A stretch of DNA of 64,000 bases, taken from sequence record ON528745; one strand, 5' to 3'. Within the stretch, counting starts at the first letter, position 1; each line of letters begins with the position of its first letter. Of this stretch, positions 5,128-29,059 are shown one piece after another. Under the pieces are notes generated by a model. That model ran no database searches and was not told where the DNA came from. It was given only the letters and a program-made list of their open reading frames with translations. The position numbers and the translations under genes were made by a program. The stretch comes from Shigella phage ESH35.

Positions 5128-5413
5128 AACGTATCGTCGTAAAGATTTAAAAGTACGTGATTATGACTATTTCGGAAAGCGTAAAGCTCCTGATGGTGTA
5201 AGTCATAAAGATATGGTTGAAAACATTTTTCGCTCAGATAAATGGCGTAGAATGAAAGGCATTGATTCAGAAGTTAAAGATGAGTTAAATCGTCAATTAC
5301 GTGGTGAAGTAAGAAAGTTGAAAAAATCAGTTTACATTGACGATGATTTTGATTACAATACTTCTCAACGAGTTGCTAAGCGTAAATCAAACGAGTGCTA
5401 TCGTTACAGCTGA
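5120..5413 (+). CDS. hypothetical basic protein (97 aa)
   Basis: internal ATG of track ORF 5081..5413; start overlaps stop of preceding ORF. Confidence 0.4.
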   Translation: MGKTYRRKDLKVRDYDYFGKRKAPDGVSHKDMVENIFRSDKWRRMKGIDSEVKDELNRQLRGEVRKLKKSVYIDDDFDYNTSQRVAKRKSNECYRYS

Positions 5414-5420
5414 GGAAAAT

Positions 5421-5552
5421 ATGAATATCAAACGCATGCTTTTTAAACAGGGATTATATACTTTAAATGTTGCTCCAAAAGGCGATACGACCAAGTGGTC
5501 AGTAAATGACTGGATTAAATTTATTGATGAAAATGGTAATTGGAAAATTTAA
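5421..5552 (+). CDS. hypothetical small protein (43 aa)
   Basis: ATG with GAGGA upstream; followed immediately by next start. Confidence 0.25.
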   Translation: MNIKRMLFKQGLYTLNVAPKGDTTKWSVNDWIKFIDENGNWKI

Positions 5553-5753
5553 ATGAATCCTGAATCTAAATTATCGCAACGAATTGCTGAAGCTCGTCGC
5601 CAGTTCTTTGAAAATATGATAGCCCAGGGTATTGATGACGAAGTTTTTCTGAACTGGTTTTGGAATCACAAATATTCAAAATGCGCAGGAGCAATATTAA
5701 TATCAGCCGCAATGATGTACGAAGGCTGGAAGGGTGCCAAACAGTTTAGCTAA
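5553..5753 (+). CDS. hypothetical small protein (66 aa)
   Basis: ATG directly after previous stop. Confidence 0.4.
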   Translation: MNPESKLSQRIAEARRQFFENMIAQGIDDEVFLNWFWNHKYSKCAGAILISAAMMYEGWKGAKQFS

Positions 5754-5771
5754 GGGCTTCGGCCCTTTTTG
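5753..5771 (+). terminator. rho-independent terminator, UUCG tetraloop hairpin
   Basis: AGGGC-ttcg-GCCCT followed by TTTTT. Confidence 0.65.
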
Positions 5772-5805
5772 GATAATAAAATTTTAACGCAATTGAGGAT
5801 AATGT

Positions 5806-6132
5806 ATGACTATTCAAATTAAAAACGCCATCAATTCTTATGCATATGATAAAGTAGTTTCTCTGCTAGAAAAAGGCGATATTGTAACTCCTCAAATTTT
5901 GGATAAATGGGAAAAAGAGCTTCATCAGACGATGAAACAGAATGATCAGAAGATTGGACGAAATACTGTCCGTGAATTGTTGGTTCAATATATCTTGTCA
6001 GAATTTGATGTTAAAGCTTTTGGTGTAGAATCTAAAGCTTATCAAAAACATGAAATTTCCGATAAAACTATTCGTCGTATGAAAAATCAACGCAAGAAAA
6101 AATTTGCTGACCTGAAAATTGCTAAGGTATGA
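5806..6132 (+). CDS. hypothetical protein (108 aa)
   Basis: ATG with GAGGA 8 nt upstream. Confidence 0.5.
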   Translation: MTIQIKNAINSYAYDKVVSLLEKGDIVTPQILDKWEKELHQTMKQNDQKIGRNTVRELLVQYILSEFDVKAFGVESKAYQKHEISDKTIRRMKNQRKKKFADLKIAKV

Positions 6133-6694: not shown

Positions 6695-7252
6695 ATGACA
6701 GAAACTAAGCCTAAATATAATTACGTAAACAATAAAGAGCTTTTACAAGCTATTATTGATTGGAAAACAGAATTAGCAAATAATAAAGACCCAAATAAAG
6801 TAGTTCGTCAGAATGATACTATCGGATTAGCCATTATGCTTATTGCAGAAGGCTTATCTAAGCGTTTCAACTTTTCAGGATACACCCAGTCCTGGAAACA
6901 AGAAATGATTGCAGATGGTATAGAAGCTTCTATTAAGGGGCTTCATAATTTTGATGAAACGAAATATAAAAACCCACATGCATATATAACTCAAGCTTGT
7001 TTTAATGCATTCGTCCAACGTATTAAAAAAGAACGTAAGGAAGTTGCAAAGAAATATAGTTACTTCGTTCACAATGTCTATGACAGCCGTGACGACGATA
7101 TGGTTGCGTTAGTAGATGAAACTTTTATTCAAGACATCTATGATAAAATGACGCATTACGAAGAATCAACCTATAGAACACCGGGGGCTGAAAAGAAAAG
7201 TGTTGTAGACGATTCTCCTAGTTTGGATTTTTTATATGAGGCTAACGATTAA
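6695..7252 (+). CDS. 55: sigma factor for late transcription
   Basis: 185 aa from ATG 6695 (track ORF starts at GTG 6689); near-identical to recalled T4 gp55. Confidence 0.9.
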
Positions 7253-7454
7253 CCTCTCCGGATTCTTGGAAGAAATACCTGAAGTTGAAGCTATTCCCTA
7301 TTTACTTAAAATGTATCTCAGGGAAGTTTTAGCTCTTGACATTGATATTGATCCAGAAAATCCGTATGATACCGCTTTTAAATCTAATGGTGTAGAATTA
7401 AACTATCGGTATCATTTAACAGATGATGATTTTTATTTTATATTAGAGAAATAA
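7236..7454 (+). CDS. hypothetical small acidic protein (72 aa)
   Basis: ORF overlapping end of gene 55. Confidence 0.4.
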
Positions 7455-7455
7455 T

Positions 7456-7773
7456 ATGACTGATAAACCCGAAATTAATGATGAAGTGGAAAAGCTTATT
7501 TCTTCTATTGAAGAAAAGAACCGTCTTGAAGCAGAAAGAAAAGCAAATAAGTTATTGTCTAAAAACAAACGCGAACTGAACCGTCTTTATAAGCACGCTC
7601 AGATTGCAGCTGAAAACAATAATTTCGCTCAATACGAATATGCTATCAAGAAAAGTCGGGATATTCTAAAACAGCCATATAACGATGAACTCATTAGTAT
7701 TCTTTGGAAGACTACTAGATCGCAGATTGAGGATATGATTGATGCTTACACACGTAAAATTCAAGCGTCTTAA
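7456..7773 (+). CDS. hypothetical protein (105 aa)
   Basis: ATG ORF, charged, helical-looking. Confidence 0.5.
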   Translation: MTDKPEINDEVEKLISSIEEKNRLEAERKANKLLSKNKRELNRLYKHAQIAAENNNFAQYEYAIKKSRDILKQPYNDELISILWKTTRSQIEDMIDAYTRKIQAS

Positions 7774-7945
7774 AATTAATGCAGGATTTACTGAATCTTT
7801 GAATGGTCATCTTTGCGTGAAAATTTCTGAAAAAGAATACCATGATAGTTCAATTAAAGAAGTTAATCCTCCTATTGTAAGAGCAGACCCTAATATGAAA
7901 GTGTGGGTTGATTCCTATCAAGTCAAAAAATGGTGGCAACTGTGA
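7742..7945 (+). CDS. hypothetical small protein (67 aa)
   Basis: second ATG of track ORF 7739..7945. Confidence 0.35.
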   Translation: MLTHVKFKRLKINAGFTESLNGHLCVKISEKEYHDSSIKEVNPPIVRADPNMKVWVDSYQVKKWWQL

Positions 7946-7948
7946 AAG

Positions 7949-8122
7949 ATGAACACCCAGACTTCTGAAATAGATTATAATAAAATTCGTTCCTCTAAAG
8001 AGGAAATGATGAGACGCTTTAAAGAGTCTCATGATAAAGCTAAAGCAGAAGGAACTATAAAATATAAGCGCATAAAATTTAAAAGTTCTAACGAGCCTCT
8101 GTATGGCGTATTATGTGGATAG
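7949..8122 (+). CDS. hypothetical basic protein (57 aa)
   Basis: ATG ORF ending at the hairpin at 8121. Confidence 0.35.
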   Translation: MNTQTSEIDYNKIRSSKEEMMRRFKESHDKAKAEGTIKYKRIKFKSSNEPLYGVLCG

Positions 8123-8188: not shown

Positions 8189-9391
8189 ATGAAAGTATGT
8201 ATTTTTATGGTTCGAGGTCTTGAAGGTTGTGGTGTAACTAAATTTTCTCTTGAGCAACGTGATTGGTTTATTAAGAATGGTCATGAAGTAACTTTGGTTT
8301 ATGCTAAAGATAAATCATTTACTCGTAATTGCGCGCATGATTATAAATCATTTTCAATTCCGGTTTTATTGGCAAAAGAATATGATAAAACACTTAAGCT
8401 GGTAAATGATTGTGATATTCTAATTATCAATTCAGTTCCTGCTACTTCGGTTGAAGAAGACACTATTAATAACTATAAAAAAATTATTGATAACATTAAA
8501 CCTTCTGTTCGTGTTGTAGTTTATCAACATGACCATTCTTCTCTTTCTTTGCGCCGAAATTTGGGATTAGAAGAAACTGTTCGTCGAGCTGATGTTATTT
8601 TTAGCCATTCTGATAATGGTGATTTTAATAAAGTTCTGATGAAAGAATGGTATCCTGAAACAGTTTCTCTGTTTGATGATATTGAAGAAGCACCGACAGT
8701 ATATAACTTTCAGCCTCCTATGGATATTGCGAAGGTTCGGTCAACCTACTGGAAAGATGTTTCTGAAATTAACATGAATATCAACCGTTGGATTGGTCGT
8801 ACGACCACATGGAAAGGTTTTTATCAGATGTTTGATTTTCATGAAAAACATCTTAAACCTGCAGGACTAAGTACTATTATGGAAGGTCTGGAACGTTCTC
8901 CAGCGTTCATTCCTATTAAAGAAAAAGGAATTCCATACGAGTATTATCGTCTTCATCAAGTAGACCAAATTAAAATTGCTCCTAATTTGCCAACGCAAAT
9001 TCTTGACCGTTATGTAAATAGCGAAATGCTTGAACGTATGAGTAAATCCGGATTTGGTTATCAGTTGAGTAAGTTGGATAAAAAATATCTACAGCGTTCT
9101 TTAGAATATACTCATCTCGAGCTTGGTGCATGTGGAACAATTCCGGTATTTTGGAAATCTACTGGCGAAAATTTAAAATTCCGTGTTGATAATACTCCTT
9201 TGACCTCGCATGATAGCGGTATCATTTGGTTTGATGAAAATGATATGGAATCAACATTTGAACGTATTAAAGAACTGTCATCTGACCGAGCTCTTTATGA
9301 CCGTGAGCGAGAAAAAGCATATGAATTTTTGTATCAGCATCAAGATTCAAGCTTCTGCTTTAAAGAACAGTTTGACATTATTACAAAATAA
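8189..9391 (+). CDS. agt: DNA alpha-glucosyltransferase
   Basis: 400 aa; near-identical to recalled T4 alpha-gt. Confidence 0.92.
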   Translation: MKVCIFMVRGLEGCGVTKFSLEQRDWFIKNGHEVTLVYAKDKSFTRNCAHDYKSFSIPVLLAKEYDKTLKLVNDCDILIINSVPATSVEEDTINNYKKIIDNIKPSVRVVVYQHDHSSLSLRRNLGLEETVRRADVIFSHSDNGDFNKVLMKEWYPETVSLFDDIEEAPTVYNFQPPMDIAKVRSTYWKDVSEINMNINRWIGRTTTWKGFYQMFDFHEKHLKPAGLSTIMEGLERSPAFIPIKEKGIPYEYYRLHQVDQIKIAPNLPTQILDRYVNSEMLERMSKSGFGYQLSKLDKKYLQRSLEYTHLELGACGTIPVFWKSTGENLKFRVDNTPLTSHDSGIIWFDENDMESTFERIKELSSDRALYDREREKAYEFLYQHQDSSFCFKEQFDIITK

Positions 9392-12719: not shown

Positions 12720-13429
12720 TGTTTGTGCTTACAGTTATCATTATGCCACCTTGATAAATTTCCGAAAGTGGTAACTTTACCACAATGGACGCAAGTACCA
12801 GTCTTTTCAGTTTTCTTGCGTCCATTTGGATTTTTCTTGCAGAAATTTCTATGCGCTGCGATAACGCATTTCTTGCCTATCATTCCGCAGAATTCGCAGG
12901 ATGTTTCTTCAAGAATGATTGCTTTAAGCCCGTTTGAGATATTATTTCTGTGTTCTTTAGACATCGGTGGTCTAACTTTAGGATTAGGGTGATTCGGGCA
13001 GTTATCAAAATGCCATCGATTCATATTCCCGCTTAATCCGGACTTACCGCAATGTGGACAAGTTAGTCTTGCTTTATTAGCTACTGCATCAGACATTTTC
13101 TTTCGTGTCTCCTGGGAGAATTCTTTATTCTTTTCTATTTCCCAGAGTTTACGACGAATCCAACCGAAAGTTTTATTGTTACGTTTAGCGTATTTCGTGG
13201 AAACTGTCATCATGTTAGCAGCATAGACTAATTTTGGTTCAGAAGGATAAATTTTTACTAAAAGTTGATGAGCTACATAGTGCTCTTCCGGTGTTAAATC
13301 TACTAAGTTTGAAGCATCATCGCTGCCATTTAAACAGCGTGGTATAATGTGATGAGATTCAGTATAGCAATCAAGTTTTCGAGATTTAGCATTAGAGATT
13401 AACTTTTCATAAATTAGTTTATAATTCAT
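12716..13429 (-). mobile_element. free-standing HNH homing endonuclease with three C-x2-C...H...C zinc-knuckle repeats
   Basis: N-terminal HNH motif (SHHIIPR...NLVDLTPEEH); antisense to neighbours; 4-bp tail-to-tail overlap with gene 46. Confidence 0.75.
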
Positions 13430-15825: not shown

Positions 15826-16389
15826 ATGAGCTTATTTGAAGATGATATTCAATTAAACGAGCATCAAGTTGCTTGGTATTCAAAAGATTGGACAGCTGTC
15901 CAATCTGCTGCTGATTCTTTTAAGGAAAAAGCTGAAAATGAATTTTTTGAAATAATTGGAGCTATTAATAATAAAACTAAATGCTCTATTGCTCAAAAAG
16001 ATTATTCAAAATACATGGTTGAGAATGCATTATCACAATTTCCTGAATGCATGCCAGCTGTATATGCTATGAATTTAATTGGATCAGGTTTAAGCGATGA
16101 AGCCCATTTTAATTATCTGATGGCTGCTGTTCCTCGTGGTAAAAGATATGGTAAATGGGCAAAACTGGTCGAAGATTCTACTGAAGTATTGATTATTAAG
16201 TTGCTTGCTAAGCGATATCAAGTTAATACAAATGATGCAATTAACTATAAATCAATTCTTACTAAAAATGGAAAACTTCCTTTAGTATTAAAAGAACTAA
16301 AAGGTTTAGTCACGGATGATTTTTTAAAAGAAGTGACTAAGAATGTAAAAGAACAGAAACAACTCAAAAAACTAGCATTGGAATGGTAA
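15826..16389 (+). CDS. 62: clamp loader small subunit
   Basis: 187 aa, immediately after gene 44. Confidence 0.85.
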
Positions 16390-16390
16390 A

Positions 16391-16759
16391 ATGATTGAAA
16401 TTACTCTTAAAAAACCTGAAGATTTTCTGAAAGTAAAAGAAACTTTGACTCGTATGGGAATTGCTAATAATAAAGATAAAGTTCTGTATCAGTCCTGCCA
16501 CATTCTTCAGAAAAAAGGACTATACTATATCGTCCATTTTAAAGAAATGCTTCGTATGGATGGTCGTCAGGTTGAAATGACAGAAGAAGATGAAGTTCGT
16601 CGTGATTCGATTGCGTGGCTGTTAGAAGATTGGGGATTGATTGAAATCGTTCCTGGTCAAAGAACTTTTATGAAAGATTTAACCAATAACTTCCGAGTTA
16701 TTTCTTTTAAACAAAAACATGAATGGAAACTTGTTCCTAAATATACGATTGGTAATTAA
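16391..16759 (+). CDS. regA: translational repressor RegA
   Basis: 122 aa, position between 62 and 43. Confidence 0.85.
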   Translation: MIEITLKKPEDFLKVKETLTRMGIANNKDKVLYQSCHILQKKGLYYIVHFKEMLRMDGRQVEMTEEDEVRRDSIAWLLEDWGLIEIVPGQRTFMKDLTNNFRVISFKQKHEWKLVPKYTIGN

Positions 16760-16760
16760 T

Positions 16761-16982
16761 ATGACTGCTATAATTCCGCAAGAATACATGGCGTCTCTTA
16801 AAGAAAAATATAATCTTTCTGCAACAGAAACACTTTTTGATTTACCAGAAAACCTCCAACTAAAATTTCAGGTAGAATTTCAAAAATTAGTTCACCCAGA
16901 ACAAAAACACTTTACCGCAGTGGTTAAGTCAATTAATGCAGATGGATTAACAATTTTTCACCGACAACTGGTATTAATTTAA
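16761..16982 (+). CDS. hypothetical protein (73 aa)
   Basis: internal ATG of track ORF 16719..16982. Confidence 0.4.
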   Translation: MTAIIPQEYMASLKEKYNLSATETLFDLPENLQLKFQVEFQKLVHPEQKHFTAVVKSINADGLTIFHRQLVLI

Positions 16983-19791: not shown

Positions 19792-19874
19792 CATACAAGT
19801 AATATAAATCTATACTTATGAAAAACAGATGATTCTGGACCTTTAGAATTCCCTAAAAAATTTTCACAAAACTG

Positions 19875-19903
19875 TTTACAAGACTGTTCTTCTGTGGTAC
19901 TAT
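19875..19903 (+). promoter_or_regulatory. T4-type early promoter with conserved leader
   Basis: TTTACA, 17 bp, TGgTACTAT; leader shared with copies at 38436 and 48910. Confidence 0.6.
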
Positions 19904-19940
19904 ACAACTATCAACTACTGATACAGATTTGGAGAATAAA

Positions 19941-20177
19941 ATGAAAATTGTTATGGGATGCTTAGCAGTTTGTTTAGTTGCATTAGTAGCAGTTCCATTT
20001 GTTAGTGTTGAAAATGATACTCAACCTGTGATTAAATCTAGCACCGTTATTCACACTAATGGTAAAATATCAGTTAAAATTGATGATAATCTTCATATGA
20101 ATACTAATGGAACGTTGGGTGTTCAATTAGGTAATACCTGTGTAAGCACTACTGGAGTAATTACTACTTGTATTTGA
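19941..20177 (+). CDS. small secreted protein with signal peptide (78 aa)
   Basis: GGAGA SD; hydrophobic N-terminus. Confidence 0.45.
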   Translation: MKIVMGCLAVCLVALVAVPFVSVENDTQPVIKSSTVIHTNGKISVKIDDNLHMNTNGTLGVQLGNTCVSTTGVITTCI

Positions 20178-20187
20178 GGAAATTATT

Positions 20188-20568
20188 ATGAAAATCGCTA
20201 TTTTGGTTATTGCATTAGGTCTTACTGGCTGTGTAGCTCAAGGACCGGTAGTAAATCAATCTGATGTAGGAAAAATTGTAAACTGTTCAAGCAAATTTTA
20301 TAATCCTAATGTTAAGTGTTATAAAGAAGCTCCAAAACAGACAGTAGAACAGATGCAGGCGAATTTTGACGAAGCTATTCGCCCAGATGAATCTGCTCAA
20401 GCATATCGTAATTCAGATGTAATTACACGCGAAGAAAAAATTGAAAACTACTGCGCCGAAATTTGGGCTAATTGGGCTAATAATTACCAATGGCGTACTG
20501 GTAAAAATGCTCCGATGGAGTATGTAGTGAATTCTTATAATTCATGTGTAAAAAATTTGACTAAGTGA
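20188..20568 (+). CDS. putative lipoprotein (126 aa)
   Basis: signal peptide ending in lipobox LTGC. Confidence 0.5.
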   Translation: MKIAILVIALGLTGCVAQGPVVNQSDVGKIVNCSSKFYNPNVKCYKEAPKQTVEQMQANFDEAIRPDESAQAYRNSDVITREEKIENYCAEIWANWANNYQWRTGKNAPMEYVVNSYNSCVKNLTK

Positions 20569-20575
20569 GGAAAAC

Positions 20576-20827
20576 ATGGAAACTTTAGTAGCAGGTTCAA
20601 TTTTTATGGTTTTAGTTTCAGGTGTGTTGGCTATTATTATATACATGCTTCCATGGTTCATCGCCTTGATGCGTGGGTCAAAATCAACAGTAGGAATCTT
20701 TTTCACGTCTTTACTGTTTAACTGGTCAATTATTGGTTGGTTTATTACATTTATTTGGTCAATTGCGGGTGAAACTAAAAAGTCTGCACAACCAAATCAG
20801 GTAATTATCATCAGAGAGAAGGAATGA
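20576..20827 (+). CDS. imm: immunity (superinfection exclusion) membrane protein
   Basis: 83 aa, two transmembrane segments, between 43 and 42. Confidence 0.65.
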   Translation: METLVAGSIFMVLVSGVLAIIIYMLPWFIALMRGSKSTVGIFFTSLLFNWSIIGWFITFIWSIAGETKKSAQPNQVIIIREKE

Positions 20828-20973
20828 AAAGCAAAATTATAGCAGTGTTGCTTTTAATCTTGATGATTATAATAAGTATATACTATAGTGTAACGGTTCC
20901 TCTTATGATTCCAACTATTATTTTAGGTTGGGGTTTATTACTGTTACAAGTTAAATATGAATGTATCAATTGA
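20824..20973 (+). CDS. small membrane protein (49 aa)
   Basis: ATGA overlap with imm; entirely hydrophobic. Confidence 0.3.
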   Translation: MKSKIIAVLLLILMIIISIYYSVTVPLMIPTIILGWGLLLLQVKYECIN

Positions 20974-20980
20974 GGTTTAA

Positions 20981-21721
20981 ATGATTAGTGACTCTATGAC
21001 AGTTGAAGAAATCCGTCTTCATTTGGGGCTTGCATTAAAAGAAAAAGATTTCGTAGTTGATAAAACTGGTGTTAAAACTATTGAAATTATTGGCGCATCA
21101 TTTGTAGCAGATGAACCGTTTATTTTTGGCGCTCTTAATGATGAATACATTCAGCGTGAACTTGAATGGTATAAATCTAAGAGCTTGTTTGTTAAAGATA
21201 TTCCAGGTGAAACACCAAAGATTTGGCAGCAGGTAGCATCTTCTAAAGGCGAAATTAACTCGAATTATGGTTGGGCTATCTGGTCAGAAGATAACTATGC
21301 CCAGTATGATATGTGTTTAGCTGAACTTGGTCAAAATCCTGATTCTCGACGTGGTATCATGATTTATACTCGTCCATCCATGCAATTTGACTACAATAAA
21401 GATGGTATGTCAGATTTCATGTGTACGAATACAGTACAGTACCTGATTCGTGATAAGAAAGTCAATGCAGTAGTAAGCATGCGTTCAAATGACGTGGTCT
21501 TCGGATTCCGTAATGATTATGCATGGCAAAAATACGTATTAGATAAATTAGTATCTGATTTGAATGCAGGTGATTCAACTCGTCAGTATAAAGCAGGTTC
21601 CATTATATGGAATGTCGGGAGCCTTCATGTGTATTCCCGTCATTTTTATTTGGTTGACCATTGGTGGAAAACTGGTGAAACACATATTGCGAAAAAAGAT
21701 TATAACGGTGAGTGGAAATGA
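20981..21721 (+). CDS. 42: dCMP hydroxymethylase
   Basis: 246 aa, thymidylate-synthase-like fold motifs. Confidence 0.93.
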   Translation: MISDSMTVEEIRLHLGLALKEKDFVVDKTGVKTIEIIGASFVADEPFIFGALNDEYIQRELEWYKSKSLFVKDIPGETPKIWQQVASSKGEINSNYGWAIWSEDNYAQYDMCLAELGQNPDSRRGIMIYTRPSMQFDYNKDGMSDFMCTNTVQYLIRDKKVNAVVSMRSNDVVFGFRNDYAWQKYVLDKLVSDLNAGDSTRQYKAGSIIWNVGSLHVYSRHFYLVDHWWKTGETHIAKKDYNGEWK

Positions 21722-22560
21722 TTCAATTCGTAATTCCAAGCTATCAACGCGTAGGGGCAGTTTCTGCCCTTGATATGTTTCCATCTGATTATGAACCGCA
21801 TATTGTAGTACGTGAACACGAAGAAAAAGCTTATTATGACGCTTACGGGTCTAGAGCTAAAATTATAACTATTCCTGATGATGTTAACGGAATTGCTGGT
21901 ACTCGTAAAGCAATTACTGATATGTATGCAGGTCAACGAATTTGGATGATTGATGATGATACTACTATTTGTATGAGTTCAATGCGAAAGAAAGATGATC
22001 GTCGCTGTGTAGATAAAATTAATCAATTAACTCGTGAACAGTTCTATGAATTGATTCAATACGTTAAAGATGCCATGGATTGCGGTTATTATCATGGCCA
22101 TGCTCGTCTACCTATTTTTAAAATTACTTCATCTTGGGGTAATTATCGTGAAAATTCATATGGATTCACGAATACTTGGTATGACCTTGGAAAACTTACA
22201 ACAGAACAAATTGGGTATGGAAAAATTGATTTATGCGAAGATATGTATGCATTTCTCAATTTAATTAATCAAGGTTATCCGCATTTGGCCTTGTTCAAAT
22301 ATCTGGTTGTATCTGGAAAAGCACAGGCTCCGGGCGGGTGCAGTTCAATTCGTAGTAATTCAAAACATAATAGAGCTCTTGAGCAAATCAATAGAGAGTT
22401 TCCAGAGCAAGCTCGTTGGAAAACTTCTAATATTGAAAAACGAAAATCGTTGGGTGAAGAAGACGAGCCATTAAAGGTTCTTCGCATGTGTGTTTCGCGC
22501 AAAGAAAAATCAGAAGCATTTCATAAGTTTAATGCTATTCATCCAATAGCAGTTGATTAA
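21718..22560 (+). CDS. GT-A fold glycosyltransferase at the beta-gt locus (T2/T6 beta-alpha-gt type, inferred)
   Basis: 280 aa; DxD motif (IDDD); unlike recalled T4 beta-gt; ATGA overlap with gene 42. Confidence 0.6.
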   Translation: MIQFVIPSYQRVGAVSALDMFPSDYEPHIVVREHEEKAYYDAYGSRAKIITIPDDVNGIAGTRKAITDMYAGQRIWMIDDDTTICMSSMRKKDDRRCVDKINQLTREQFYELIQYVKDAMDCGYYHGHARLPIFKITSSWGNYRENSYGFTNTWYDLGKLTTEQIGYGKIDLCEDMYAFLNLINQGYPHLALFKYLVVSGKAQAPGGCSSIRSNSKHNRALEQINREFPEQARWKTSNIEKRKSLGEEDEPLKVLRMCVSRKEKSEAFHKFNAIHPIAVD

Positions 22561-22637
22561 TGCCTAAATTTATTGTGTTATAATTACTCTATCTTTAACC
22601 AGTGAGGAAAATATAATGATGCCTATGGAAAAAATGA

Positions 22638-23819
22638 ATGTCTATTGCAGATTTAAAATCCCGTTTGATTAAAGCTTCCACTTCTAAAATGACTGCTGAA
22701 CTGACTACATCTAAATTCTTTAATGAAAAGGATGTAATCCGTACAAAAATCCCAATGCTTAATATTGCTATTTCTGGTGCGATTGATGGCGGCATGCAGT
22801 CTGGTTTAACTATTTTCGCAGGGCCTTCTAAACACTTTAAATCAAATATGTCTTTGACTATGGTTGCGGCATATTTGAACAAATATCCTGACGCGGTTTG
22901 TCTATTCTATGATAGTGAATTTGGTATTACTCCAGCTTATTTGCGATCTATGGGAGTTGACCCGGAACGAGTAATTCATACGCCGATTCAGTCAGTTGAA
23001 CAGCTGAAAATTGATATGGTGAACCAGCTTGAAGCTATTGAGCGTGGTGAAAAGGTTATTGTATTCATCGACTCAATTGGTAATATGGCTTCTAAGAAAG
23101 AAACGGAAGATGCCTTGAATGAAAAATCTGTGGCAGATATGACTCGTGCTAAATCACTGAAGTCATTATTCCGTATTGTTACTCCTTATTTTAGTATTAA
23201 AAATATTCCATGTGTTGCAGTTAACCATACAATTGAAACAATTGAAATGTTTAGTAAAACCGTGATGACAGGTGGTACAGGCGTAATGTATTCGGCTGAT
23301 ACTGTATTCATTATCGGTAAGCGTCAGATTAAAGATGGTTCTGATCTTCAGGGGTATCAATTTGTTCTAAATGTAGAAAAATCTCGTACCGTTAAAGAAA
23401 AAAGTAAATTCTTTATTGATGTTAAATTTGACGGTGGTATCGATCCTTATTCTGGATTGTTAGATATGGCTCTAGAATTAGGATTTGTAGTAAAACCTAA
23501 AAATGGCTGGTATGCTCGTGAATTTCTTGACGAAGAAACCGGCGAGATGATTCGCGAAGAAAAATCTTGGCGTGCAAAAGATACTAACTGCACTACATTC
23601 TGGGGTCCTTTATTTAAGCATCAACCATTCCGAGATGCTATTAAACGTGCTTATCAGTTAGGTGCTATTGATAGTAATGAAATTGTTGAAGCTGAAGTTG
23701 ATGAATTGATTAACTCAAAGGTTGAAAAATTTAAATCTCCAGAAAGTAAAAGTAAATCAGCTGCTGATTTAGAAACTGACCTCGAGCAGTTAAGTGATAT
23801 GGAAGAATTTAATGAATAA
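22638..23819 (+). CDS. uvsX: RecA-like recombinase
   Basis: 393 aa; Walker A GPSKHFKS; matches recalled T4 UvsX. Confidence 0.95.
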   Translation: MSIADLKSRLIKASTSKMTAELTTSKFFNEKDVIRTKIPMLNIAISGAIDGGMQSGLTIFAGPSKHFKSNMSLTMVAAYLNKYPDAVCLFYDSEFGITPAYLRSMGVDPERVIHTPIQSVEQLKIDMVNQLEAIERGEKVIVFIDSIGNMASKKETEDALNEKSVADMTRAKSLKSLFRIVTPYFSIKNIPCVAVNHTIETIEMFSKTVMTGGTGVMYSADTVFIIGKRQIKDGSDLQGYQFVLNVEKSRTVKEKSKFFIDVKFDGGIDPYSGLLDMALELGFVVKPKNGWYAREFLDEETGEMIREEKSWRAKDTNCTTFWGPLFKHQPFRDAIKRAYQLGAIDSNEIVEAEVDELINSKVEKFKSPESKSKSAADLETDLEQLSDMEEFNE

Positions 23820-24156
23820 AGATGATTTAGATTTAGATCTAGAAATTATCGATGAATCCCCCTCTTCGGAGGGGGAAGAAGAAAGAAAAGAACGTCTTTT
23901 TAATGAATCTCTTAAGATAATTAAATCCGCTATGGAAAATGTTATCCAGGAGATTGTCATTAAACTAGAAGATGGTTCTACACATATAGTGTATGTAACT
24001 AAACTGGATTGGGTTGATGGAAAGGTTGTAATGGACTTTGCTGTTCTTGACCAAGAAAGAAAAGCTGAGTTAGCTCCTCATGTAGAAAAATGTATTACAA
24101 TGCAACTACAAGATGCATTTAATAAAAGGTCAAAGAAAAAGTTTAAATTCTTTTAA
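23812..24156 (+). CDS. 40: head vertex assembly chaperone gp40
   Basis: 114 aa from internal ATG overlapping uvsX stop. Confidence 0.7.
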   Translation: MNKDDLDLDLEIIDESPSSEGEEERKERLFNESLKIIKSAMENVIQEIVIKLEDGSTHIVYVTKLDWVDGKVVMDFAVLDQERKAELAPHVEKCITMQLQDAFNKRSKKKFKFF

Positions 24157-24165
24157 GGAGTAAGT

Positions 24166-25593
24166 GTGGTAGAAATTATTCTTTCTCATCTTATATTTGA
24201 TCAAGCTTATTTTTCAAAAGTTTGGCCATATATGGATTCAGAATATTTTGAAAGTGGTCCAGCTAAAAATACATTCAAATTAATTAAATCTCATGTTAAT
24301 GAGTACCATAGCGTTCCATCTATTAATGCGTTAAATGTTGCATTAGAAAATAGTTCATTTACTGAAACAGAATATTCTGGTGTAAAAACACTTATTTCAA
24401 AACTGGCTGATTCTCCGGAAGACCACAGCTGGTTAGTAAAAGAAACAGAAAAATATGTTCAGCAAAGGGCGATGTTTAACGCCACATCTAAAATAATTGA
24501 AATTCAAACTAATGCTGAGCTTCCTCCGGAAAAACGAAATAAGAAAATGCCGGATGTTGGTGCTATTCCTGACATCATGCGCCAAGCATTATCAATTTCA
24601 TTTGATAGTTACGTTGGTCATGATTGGATGGATGACTACGAAGCACGTTGGCTATCTTATATGAATAAAGCTCGTAAGGTTCCATTTAAACTCAGAATTC
24701 TAAACAAAATTACGAAAGGCGGAGCTGAAACTGGAACGCTGAACGTTTTAATGGCTGGCGTTAACGTTGGTAAGTCATTAGGATTGTGTTCATTGGCAGC
24801 AGATTATTTACAGCTCGGACATAATGTTCTTTACATTTCCATGGAAATGGCAGAAGAAGTCTGCGCTAAACGTATTGATGCTAATATGCTTGATGTTTCT
24901 CTTGATGACATTGATGATGGGCATATTTCTTACGCTGAGTATAAAGGAAAAATGGAAAAATGGCGTGAGAAATCTACTCTCGGTCGTTTAATCGTTAAAC
25001 AGTATCCTACTGGTGGAGCAGATGCTAATACATTTCGATCGCTTTTAAACGAATTAAAGCTCAAGAAGAATTTTGTTCCAACAATCATTATTGTCGACTA
25101 TCTGGGTATTTGTAAATCTTGCCGCATTAGAGTTTACTCAGAAAATAGTTACACAACTGTTAAAGCCATTGCAGAGGAATTACGTGCTCTTGCTGTTGAA
25201 ACCGAAACTGTTCTTTGGACTGCAGCACAGGTTGGTAAACAAGCTTGGGATTCTTCTGATGTTAACATGAGCGATATTGCAGAATCTGCCGGTCTTCCAG
25301 CAACAGCTGATTTTATGCTTGCGGTCATTGAAACCGAGGAGTTAGCAGCTGCTGAACAACAACTTATTAAGCAAATCAAATCACGATATGGTGATAAGAA
25401 TAAATGGAATAAGTTTTTGATGGGTGTTCAAAAAGGAAATCAGAAATGGGTAGAAATTGAACAAGATTCTACTCCAACCGAAGTGAGTGAAGTAGCAGGT
25501 TCACAACAGATTCAGGCTGAACAGAATCGCTATCAAAGAAACGAATCAGCTCGAGCTCAGTTAGATGCTTTGGCAAATGAATTAAAATTTTAG
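24166..25593 (+). CDS. 41: replicative DNA helicase (DnaB-like)
   Basis: 475 aa, GTG start after AAGGAG; Walker A GVNVGKS. Confidence 0.97.
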   Translation: MVEIILSHLIFDQAYFSKVWPYMDSEYFESGPAKNTFKLIKSHVNEYHSVPSINALNVALENSSFTETEYSGVKTLISKLADSPEDHSWLVKETEKYVQQRAMFNATSKIIEIQTNAELPPEKRNKKMPDVGAIPDIMRQALSISFDSYVGHDWMDDYEARWLSYMNKARKVPFKLRILNKITKGGAETGTLNVLMAGVNVGKSLGLCSLAADYLQLGHNVLYISMEMAEEVCAKRIDANMLDVSLDDIDDGHISYAEYKGKMEKWREKSTLGRLIVKQYPTGGADANTFRSLLNELKLKKNFVPTIIIVDYLGICKSCRIRVYSENSYTTVKAIAEELRALAVETETVLWTAAQVGKQAWDSSDVNMSDIAESAGLPATADFMLAVIETEELAAAEQQLIKQIKSRYGDKNKWNKFLMGVQKGNQKWVEIEQDSTPTEVSEVAGSQQIQAEQNRYQRNESARAQLDALANELKF

Positions 25594-27241: not shown

Positions 27242-28270
27242 ATGTCATTAATACCTTGGATTGATAATGAGTTTGCATACCGTGCATTGGCTCATTTACC
27301 TAAATTCGCACAAGTAAATAATAGTTCAACTTTTAAATTACGGTTTAGATGTCCCGTTTGTGGAGATTCAAAAACCGATCAAAATAAAGCCCGTGGATGG
27401 TATTATGGCGATAATAATGAAGGAAATATTCATTGTTATAACTGTAACTATCATGCACCAATTGGAATATATTTAAAGGAGTTTGAACCTGATTTATATC
27501 GTGAGTATATCTTTGAAATAAGAAAAGAAAAAGGTAAAAGTCGTCCAGTAGAAAAACCTAAAGAACTTCCTAAACAACCTGAGAAAAAAATAATTAAATC
27601 TCTTCCGTCATGTATTAGATTAGATAAACTGGCGGAAGACCATCCAATTATAAAATATGTAAAAGCTCGTTGTATTCCAAAGGATAAATGGAAATATCTT
27701 TGGTTTACAACCGAATGGCCTAAATTAGTTAATAGTATAGCGCCAGGAACATATAAAAAGGAAATACCTGAGCCTCGTCTTGTTATTCCAATTTATAATG
27801 CTAACGGAAAAGCCGAGTCTTTTCAAGGCCGTGCATTAAAGAAAGATGCTCCTCAAAAATATATCACCATAAAAGCTTATCCTGAAGCAACAAAAATCTA
27901 TGGCGTTGAACGAGTTAAAGATGGTGATGTATATGTTCTAGAAGGACCTATAGATTCACTTTTTATTGAAAATGGTATAGCTATTACGGGTGGTCAATTA
28001 GACCTAGAAGTTGTTCCATTTAAAGATAGACGTGTGTGGGTTTTAGATAATGAACCTCGTCATCCTGACACTATTAAACGAATGACTAAATTAGTTGATG
28101 CAGGAGAAAGGGTTATGTTTTGGGACAAATCTCCCTGGAAATCAAAAGATGTTAATGATATGATTAGAAAGGAAGGTGCAACCCCTGAACAAATTATGGA
28201 ATATATGAAAAATAATATTGCTCAGGGGTTGATGGCTAAAATGCGGTTATCTAAATATGCTAAGATTTAA
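27242..28270 (+). CDS. 61: DNA primase
   Basis: 342 aa; N-terminal zinc-binding CPVCGDS...CYNCN; TOPRIM-like region. Confidence 0.92.
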   Translation: MSLIPWIDNEFAYRALAHLPKFAQVNNSSTFKLRFRCPVCGDSKTDQNKARGWYYGDNNEGNIHCYNCNYHAPIGIYLKEFEPDLYREYIFEIRKEKGKSRPVEKPKELPKQPEKKIIKSLPSCIRLDKLAEDHPIIKYVKARCIPKDKWKYLWFTTEWPKLVNSIAPGTYKKEIPEPRLVIPIYNANGKAESFQGRALKKDAPQKYITIKAYPEATKIYGVERVKDGDVYVLEGPIDSLFIENGIAITGGQLDLEVVPFKDRRVWVLDNEPRHPDTIKRMTKLVDAGERVMFWDKSPWKSKDVNDMIRKEGATPEQIMEYMKNNIAQGLMAKMRLSKYAKI

Positions 28271-28467
28271 ATTAACCCAACTAAAGCGAATGCTAAATCT
28301 ACAAATGTATCAAGAGTAACTACTGGAATATTAATACCATGTGCAATTGCAACAGGTGATAGAATAAAGTTCCAGAGTAAAATTCCTACCATAGCAGAAA
28401 TAGTAAAAGCTATACGTTTTTTATTACCTTTTATGGCATTAACAAGTGCCATTAATTTTTGTACCAT
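28267..28467 (-). CDS. antisense small hydrophobic protein (66 aa)
   Basis: strong AAGGAGG SD 4 nt upstream; tail-to-tail 4-bp overlap with gene 61; two hydrophobic segments. Confidence 0.35.
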   Translation of the reverse strand: MVQKLMALVNAIKGNKKRIAFTISAMVGILLWNFILSPVAIAHGINIPVVTLDTFVDLAFALVGLI

Positions 28468-28478
28468 ATGTCCTCCTT

Positions 28479-28504
28479 ATTGCTTTATATATTTATTGTA
28501 TAAT
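28479..28504 (+). promoter_or_regulatory. MotA-dependent middle promoter for gene 56
   Basis: perfect MotA box ATTGCTTTA, 11 bp, then TATAAT. Confidence 0.55.
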
Positions 28505-28540
28505 TAATCTACTAACCCATGAATTGAAAGGAAAAATAAC

Positions 28541-29059
28541 ATGCCACATTTCAACGAATGTAGTCAACTGATCGAAGGCGCTGATAAAGCTCAAAATGAA
28601 TATTGGGATATTCTCGGTGATGAAAAAGACCCGCTGCAGGTAATGCTTGACATGCAGAAATCTCTGCAGATTCGTTTAGCTAAAGATAAACCTGAATATA
28701 ATCGTCATCCTGATGATTTGGCTACTGCCGGTGAAGTTGTTGATTGGCTACGTAATCAGAAAGATTATATTGACGATGAATTCCGTGAACTTCTGACATC
28801 TCTTGGCGGTATGAGCAATGGCGAAAAAGATGCATCTGCTGTATGGAAGCCTTGGAAAGCTCAACATGGTGAACGCCGTGAAACTCTGATTACTGATTTG
28901 TCTCCACAAGACCAATTGGAAATTAAATTTGAAATGATTGATATTCTCCATTTCGTTCTGAACATGTTCCAAGGTCTTGGTCTTACAGCTGAAGAAATCT
29001 TTAAACTTTATTACCTGAAAAATGCTGAAAATTTCGCACGTCAAGACCGAGGTTATTAA
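28541..29059 (+). CDS. 56: dCTPase/dUTPase (MazG-like NTP pyrophosphohydrolase)
   Basis: 172 aa, acidic EExxE-type motifs. Confidence 0.7.
   Translation: MPHFNECSQLIEGADKAQNEYWDILGDEKDPLQVMLDMQKSLQIRLAKDKPEYNRHPDDLATAGEVVDWLRNQKDYIDDEFRELLTSLGGMSNGEKDASAVWKPWKAQHGERRETLITDLSPQDQLEIKFEMIDILHFVLNMFQGLGLTAEEIFKLYYLKNAENFARQDRGY

Follow-up and report, generated by a model that had tools for sequence, protein, structure and literature searches.

A probable orthologue of the T2/T6 second-glucose transferase in the beta-glucosyltransferase slot of Shigella phage ESH35

Results

The window analysed in this study is a 64,000-nt stretch of Shigella phage ESH35 (record ON528745). Within it, a putative ba-gt/TAGT gene (beta-glucosyl-HMC-alpha-glucosyltransferase) occupies positions 21718-22560 of the plus strand as an intact open reading frame, which runs from an ATG at 21718 to a TAA at 22558-22560 and translates into 280 amino acids. 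The program-made list of open reading frames begins the same frame at a GTG at 21712 (282 amino acids); the ba-gt annotations of T2, QOTSP, EL and Solly use the start corresponding to ATG 21718, which shares bases with the TGA stop of gene 42 in an ATGA, likewise in all four phages. Gene 42 itself (20981-21721, plus strand, 246 amino acids), encoding the dCMP hydroxymethylase that makes hydroxymethylcytosine (hmC), was recognised by a Pfam thymidylate synthase match and by 96% nucleotide identity to the part of T4 in which gene 42 lies. The downstream flank is uvsX (22638-23819, plus strand), recognised from its open reading frame and by DNA comparison. The position of a 280-residue frame after gene 42, as given in the first-pass annotation, was thus confirmed.

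The boundaries of the slot were defined by blastn of window positions 19800-24200 against the T4 locus. DNA homology to T4 stops at 21703, where gene 42 still has 18 nt to run, and restarts at 22650, 12 nt inside uvsX, which leaves a cassette of 946 bp (21704-22649) without DNA homology to T4. According to the T4 annotation, the corresponding interval (T4 record 23556-25496) comprises 1,941 bp carrying beta-gt and the homing endonuclease gene segA. Because the homology breaks at these two points around the beta-gt and segA slot, the earlier statement that a glycosyltransferase lies in place of T4 beta-gt is literally true. In T4, beta-gt is accompanied by segA, located between beta-gt and uvsX; the window, however, lacks segA at 22561-22637, the 77-bp gap between ba-gt and uvsX. 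Scans of the region around ba-gt gave numbers within chance for both promoters (13 sites against 10.6 +/- 2.8 expected) and terminators (1 site against 1.0 expected). Codons 12-19 of ba-gt contain, at 21752-21772, a G+C-rich hairpin, TAGGGGCAGTTTCTGCCCTTG, with T-rich sequence after it, and T2 and T6 share much of the stem sequence unchanged; shuffles also give one terminator-like site by chance, and the hairpin may be meaningless.

The 280-residue protein fell into PHROGs family phrog_842, which carries the same enzyme name (E = 7.9e-89), and matched the Pfam family PF20691 (TET-associated glycosyltransferase, TAGT) at 39.5 bits against a gathering threshold of 27.5, with residues 3-207 aligned to profile positions 2-205 of 205. 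Nucleotide identity over the full gene length was at least 90% (90-98%) in 474 phage records, mostly T4-like phages of Escherichia, Shigella and Yersinia, many of them annotated with this enzyme. By protein search, a homologue was present in 689 records, at approximately 64% in Klebsiella and Enterobacter phages and 47% in Serratia phages. The proposed alignment with the T2, T6 and T4 enzymes gave 7 differences in 280 residues against T2 (97.5% identity, with three independent T2 records in agreement) and 9 against T6 (96.8%); moreover, 5-6 residues separate the protein from the ba-gt of Solly and QOTSP. T4 beta-gt, in contrast, matches a separate Pfam family, PF09198, for which hmmscan returned no match to the 280-residue frame, and BLASTP found no similarity between the two proteins (best E = 3.2), so that the remark that the protein does not resemble T4 beta-gt proved correct. 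A tblastn search with T4 beta-gt found no counterpart in the 64-kb window of the approximately 167-kb genome (best E = 1.4). Glycos_transf_2 (GT2, PF00535) gave no hmmscan match even at E up to 1, the likeness to GT2 being structural only, and NCBIfam held no model for either glucosyltransferase. A Pfam 'RNA_binding' hit on residues 216-271 was dismissed as weak and under its cut-off (E = 0.061).

The family alignment consisted of the protein, nine full-length database relatives and one near-identical cluster representative, giving 11 sequences with identities from 98% to 31%. Since a sequence search of the PDB turned up no relative with a solved structure (the best hit, at E = 0.57, being spurious), the fold was taken from an AlphaFold2 model, and the alignment behind that model was shallow because a large protein database search yielded only 12 clusters. 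The model from these 11 sequences had a mean pLDDT of 79.5 and a pTM of 0.81, with a disordered loop at residues 131-149 (pLDDT below 50). Its first half is built as beta-alpha-beta-alpha-beta-alpha-beta, and D79-D80-D81 directly follows strand beta-4 (residues 74-78); as modelled, the strand order and the position of this triplet are those of a GT-A layout. The top structural matches of the model were also GT-A enzymes. However, the cellular GT2-type GT-A enzymes (TarP, TarS, RmlT, K4CP, WrtF and AvpGT) shared only 8-17% identity with it in structural alignments, and they differ from ba-gt, whose acceptor is a sugar on DNA.

Three short motifs stood out in the alignment. I78-D79-D80-D81 is encoded at 21949-21960, with the aspartate codons at 21952-21960 (plus strand). 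A DxD triplet alone is frequent by chance; here, all three aspartates are invariant in the 11 sequences and lie directly after strand beta-4, which upheld the earlier reading of IDDD as a GT-A DxD motif, and the role of GT-A enzymes generally suggests that they form the site for the metal and the UDP-sugar diphosphate. Following strand beta-1, the N-terminal VIPSYQR loop contains the invariant residues I6-P7-S8-Y9 and R11, the S8-Y9-Q10-R11 codons being located at 21739-21750 (plus strand). GT2 enzymes have a similar N-terminal loop, and on this basis the VIPSYQR loop may bind the nucleotide. In addition, D175 is invariant and E174 nearly so (codons 22237-22242, plus strand), which makes D175 a candidate for the catalytic base of an inverting GT-A enzyme. 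All 32 family-invariant residues are present in the window protein, and the frame is open through 280 codons. Four substitutions (T23S, R85C, R92K and E117K) are private relative to the six compared proteins, and all of them fall in family-variable columns; R85C lies four residues past the DDD triplet in a column that holds R, H, T, D or C across the family.

The window also encodes alpha-gt, the 400-residue DNA alpha-glucosyltransferase that would make the alpha-glucosyl-hmC acceptor, at 8189-9391 (plus strand). Its earlier identification was substantiated by the Pfam match to PF11440 (E = 1.8e-237) and by 91% identity to a T4 alpha-gt. The protein is 1 residue from the alpha-gt of Solly and QOTSP, 3 from that of T2 and 34 from that of T6. 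Gene 56 (28541-29059, plus strand), found by sequence searches, encodes the dCTPase that keeps unmodified cytosine out of the DNA. Its product shares only 72% identity with the T2/T6 protein, although the product of the adjacent primase gene 61 matches that of T2 at 98% identity. An unusual status for this gene 56 allele was rejected: it is a common alternative allele, and since it occurs at identities of at least 95% in 283 phage records, its divergence reflects ordinary mosaicism.

Over 9 kb, the window DNA is 97.1% identical to QOTSP and NR1. A homing-endonuclease-like frame at 12722-13429 (minus strand) is 99% identical to QOTSP_263, and T2 and T6 hold other inserts nearby. A tblastn search of the window with T2 Dam gave no match at E <= 1e-3, and the 273-bp gap between gene 61 and gene 56 (28268-28540) is without dam; T2 and T4 have dam, whereas the published Solly/QOTSP group, as the window, lacks it. 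Between T2 and Solly, ba-gt differs just by R11H and P251S, and alpha-gt by two residues. Unlike T2 ba-gt, the window protein retains both R11 and P251. Residue 11 (window codon 21748-21750) is histidine in all three T2 records examined, including PV648363 (locus piece 16001-16843), and arginine in the window, T6, Solly, QOTSP, EL, RB33, AdolfPortmann and all ten database relatives, whose identities reach as low as 31%. Of 442 phage records that matched, seven from T2 together with SV76 were the only ones to contain the exact T2 75-mer across codon 11; RB33 and AdolfPortmann are one base off this 75-mer and encode R11.

Two T6 records carry lesions in the gene. In MH550421 (locus piece 7138-7980), a TAG is present at codon 10 and the coding sequence is annotated from M20 (261 residues), and in AP018814 (locus piece 5135-5974), the loss of 3 nt shortens IDDD to IDD. 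Either the laboratory stocks had mutated or the assemblies are in error, which matters to users of MH550421 or AP018814 as a T6 reference.

Discussion

In this study, the 280-residue frame of ESH35 was assigned, with a probability of roughly 90%, as the orthologue of T2/T6 ba-gt (also called ggt or TAGT), the enzyme that adds the second glucose after alpha-gt has acted. Orthology, fold, motif conservation, synteny (ba-gt between gene 42 and uvsX, with alpha-gt also present) and the lack of beta-gt within the window were established directly by this analysis. The T2 and T6 genes match that of ESH35 in length, in their slot between gene 42 and uvsX, in the ATGA overlap with gene 42, in the DDD triplet and in the partner alpha-gt. 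T4 beta-gt shares with the window gene the slot downstream of gene 42, but it differs in fold (GT-B against GT-A), in sequence, to which it has no similarity, and in acceptor (bare hmC against alpha-glucosyl-hmC). Like T4 beta-gt, the window enzyme would use UDP-glucose as donor and an inverting, beta-forming chemistry on the sugar or hmC of phage DNA. This view of a shared donor and chemistry derives partly from a published study (PMC13216743), in which the T6 TAGT was modelled as a GT-A enzyme sister to GT2. The TAGT gene has likewise been described as syntenic with T4 beta-GT by the authors who measured the DNA of related isolates (PMC13390438).

The reaction and the DNA composition proposed for ESH35 are carried over from published experiments on orthologues, in which alpha-gt adds an alpha-glucose to hmC and ba-gt adds a beta-1,6 glucose to give gentiobiosyl-hmC (PMC6024577; PMC13216743). 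By this analogy, gp42 would make hydroxymethyl-dCMP and gp56 would remove dCTP, so that hmC would take the place of cytosine in the phage DNA; alpha-gt would then transfer an alpha-linked glucose from UDP-glucose onto hmC in DNA, and ba-gt, as a GT-A enzyme, would place a second glucose in beta-1,6 linkage on the first. In this step D79-D81 would hold the metal and the UDP diphosphate, and D175 would be the likely catalytic base. Inversion at the anomeric carbon in this step would be in keeping with a GT2-like GT-A enzyme. Sites of hmC out of the reach of alpha-gt would remain bare as long as the genome outside the window, like the window, encodes no beta-gt, although a beta-gt or another transferase may lie there. 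Two groups have reported that the DNA of T6 deleted for ba-gt carries only alpha-glucosyl-hmC (PMC11078745; bioRxiv 10.64898/2026.02.25.707755); moreover, this DNA is more sensitive to the Brig1 glycosylase (PMC11078745) and turns into a substrate of the BapA glucosidase (bioRxiv 10.64898/2026.02.25.707755).

The first-pass annotation had predicted a T2/T6-like glycosylation pattern, and this reading is supported by the identities to both T2 and T6 ba-gt together with the presence of alpha-gt, the pattern in DNA being projected from orthologues. The closest guides are the Durham-collection Tequatrovirus isolates, none of which is ESH35 itself. In Solly, QOTSP, NR1, EH2 and others, HPLC/MS showed gentiobiosyl-hmC at approximately two-thirds and hmC at one-third, with a trace of alpha-glucosyl-hmC; in EL, BGP and Geo, the ratio of hmC to alpha-glucosyl-hmC to gentiobiosyl-hmC was approximately 1:2:2, and beta-glucosyl-hmC was found in none of these isolates (PMC13390438). 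We infer for ESH35, with moderate confidence in the quantities, a DNA in which gentiobiosyl-hmC makes up approximately two-thirds and bare hmC one-third, with little alpha-monoglucosyl-hmC and without beta-glucosyl-hmC. A gentiobiose-dominated pattern is expected because alpha-gt and ba-gt are almost the same as in Solly and QOTSP and because R11 and P251 are kept.

T2 DNA, reported to carry 70% alpha-glucosyl and 5% gentiobiosyl residues (PMC6024577), shows that the gene set alone leaves these proportions unfixed, since T2 has almost the same two enzymes. Accordingly, the ba-gt of ESH35 might be weakly active, and the DNA would then be T2-like, mostly alpha-monoglucosyl-hmC with a few percent of gentiobiosyl-hmC. 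This alternative could draw on the alpha-gt, which is the T2/Solly allele (in distinction from that of T6), and on R85C near DDD, which could shift the activity. It is nevertheless unlikely: the window shares R11 and P251 with Solly, QOTSP and T6, R11 is family-invariant with H11 seen only in T2 records, column 85 is variable, and ba-gt proteins as near as those of Solly and QOTSP yield the gentiobiose-rich DNA described above (PMC13390438). R11H could itself account for the low gentiobiosyl-hmC of T2, and we propose tentatively, as a possibility against which the odds still stand, that how far T-even phages add the second glucose depends largely on residue 11 of ba-gt (R against the H of T2). 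If this is true, ESH35 would be of a 'high-gentiobiose' type, and the sixty-year-old difference between T2 and T6 would reflect a hypomorphic T2 allele.

A far less probable alternative is that the enzyme glucosylates bare hmC directly as a stand-in for T4 beta-gt, not alpha-glucosyl-hmC. The gene does sit in the beta-gt slot, and TAGT homologues occur in some phages without alpha-GT or beta-GT (PMC13216743), so that some members of the family must use another acceptor. However, phages with the same gene set contain no beta-glucosyl-hmC and leave approximately one-third of their hmC bare (PMC13390438), T6 without ba-gt retains the alpha-glucosyl fraction and loses the second sugar only (PMC11078745; bioRxiv 10.64898/2026.02.25.707755), and both fold and sequence are unrelated to beta-gt. 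Least credible is a decayed or unexpressed remnant: the lesions in MH550421 and AP018814 imply that the gene can be damaged in laboratory stocks or their assemblies, but in ESH35 the 280 codons are open, all 32 invariant family residues are intact and the start and gene 42 stop codons overlap in the manner of the other phages.

The orthologue of T2/T6 ba-gt is thus the favoured reading, and it adds nothing new to the biology because most Tequatrovirus phages have the alpha-gt plus TAGT genotype, which is already known, annotated and characterised. Reportedly, the gene was cloned from T2 and T6, and its sequence reported, by Winkler and Rueger in 1993. Which host defences can act against a T-even phage depends on the sugar that its hmC carries. 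Gentiobiosyl-hmC resists the Brig1 glycosylase in vitro (PMC11078745) and the BapA glucosidase (bioRxiv 10.64898/2026.02.25.707755), and it is still cut by enzymes of the GmrSD/BrxU type (GmrSD, PMC13216743; BrxU study, PMC13390438); the bare hmC fraction is a target of hmC-specific systems. In conclusion, alpha-gt together with TAGT is the usual arrangement in T4-like coliphages, to which T4 and not ESH35 is the exception, and this genotype helps to predict the host range of ESH35 and to choose restriction or sequencing methods for it.
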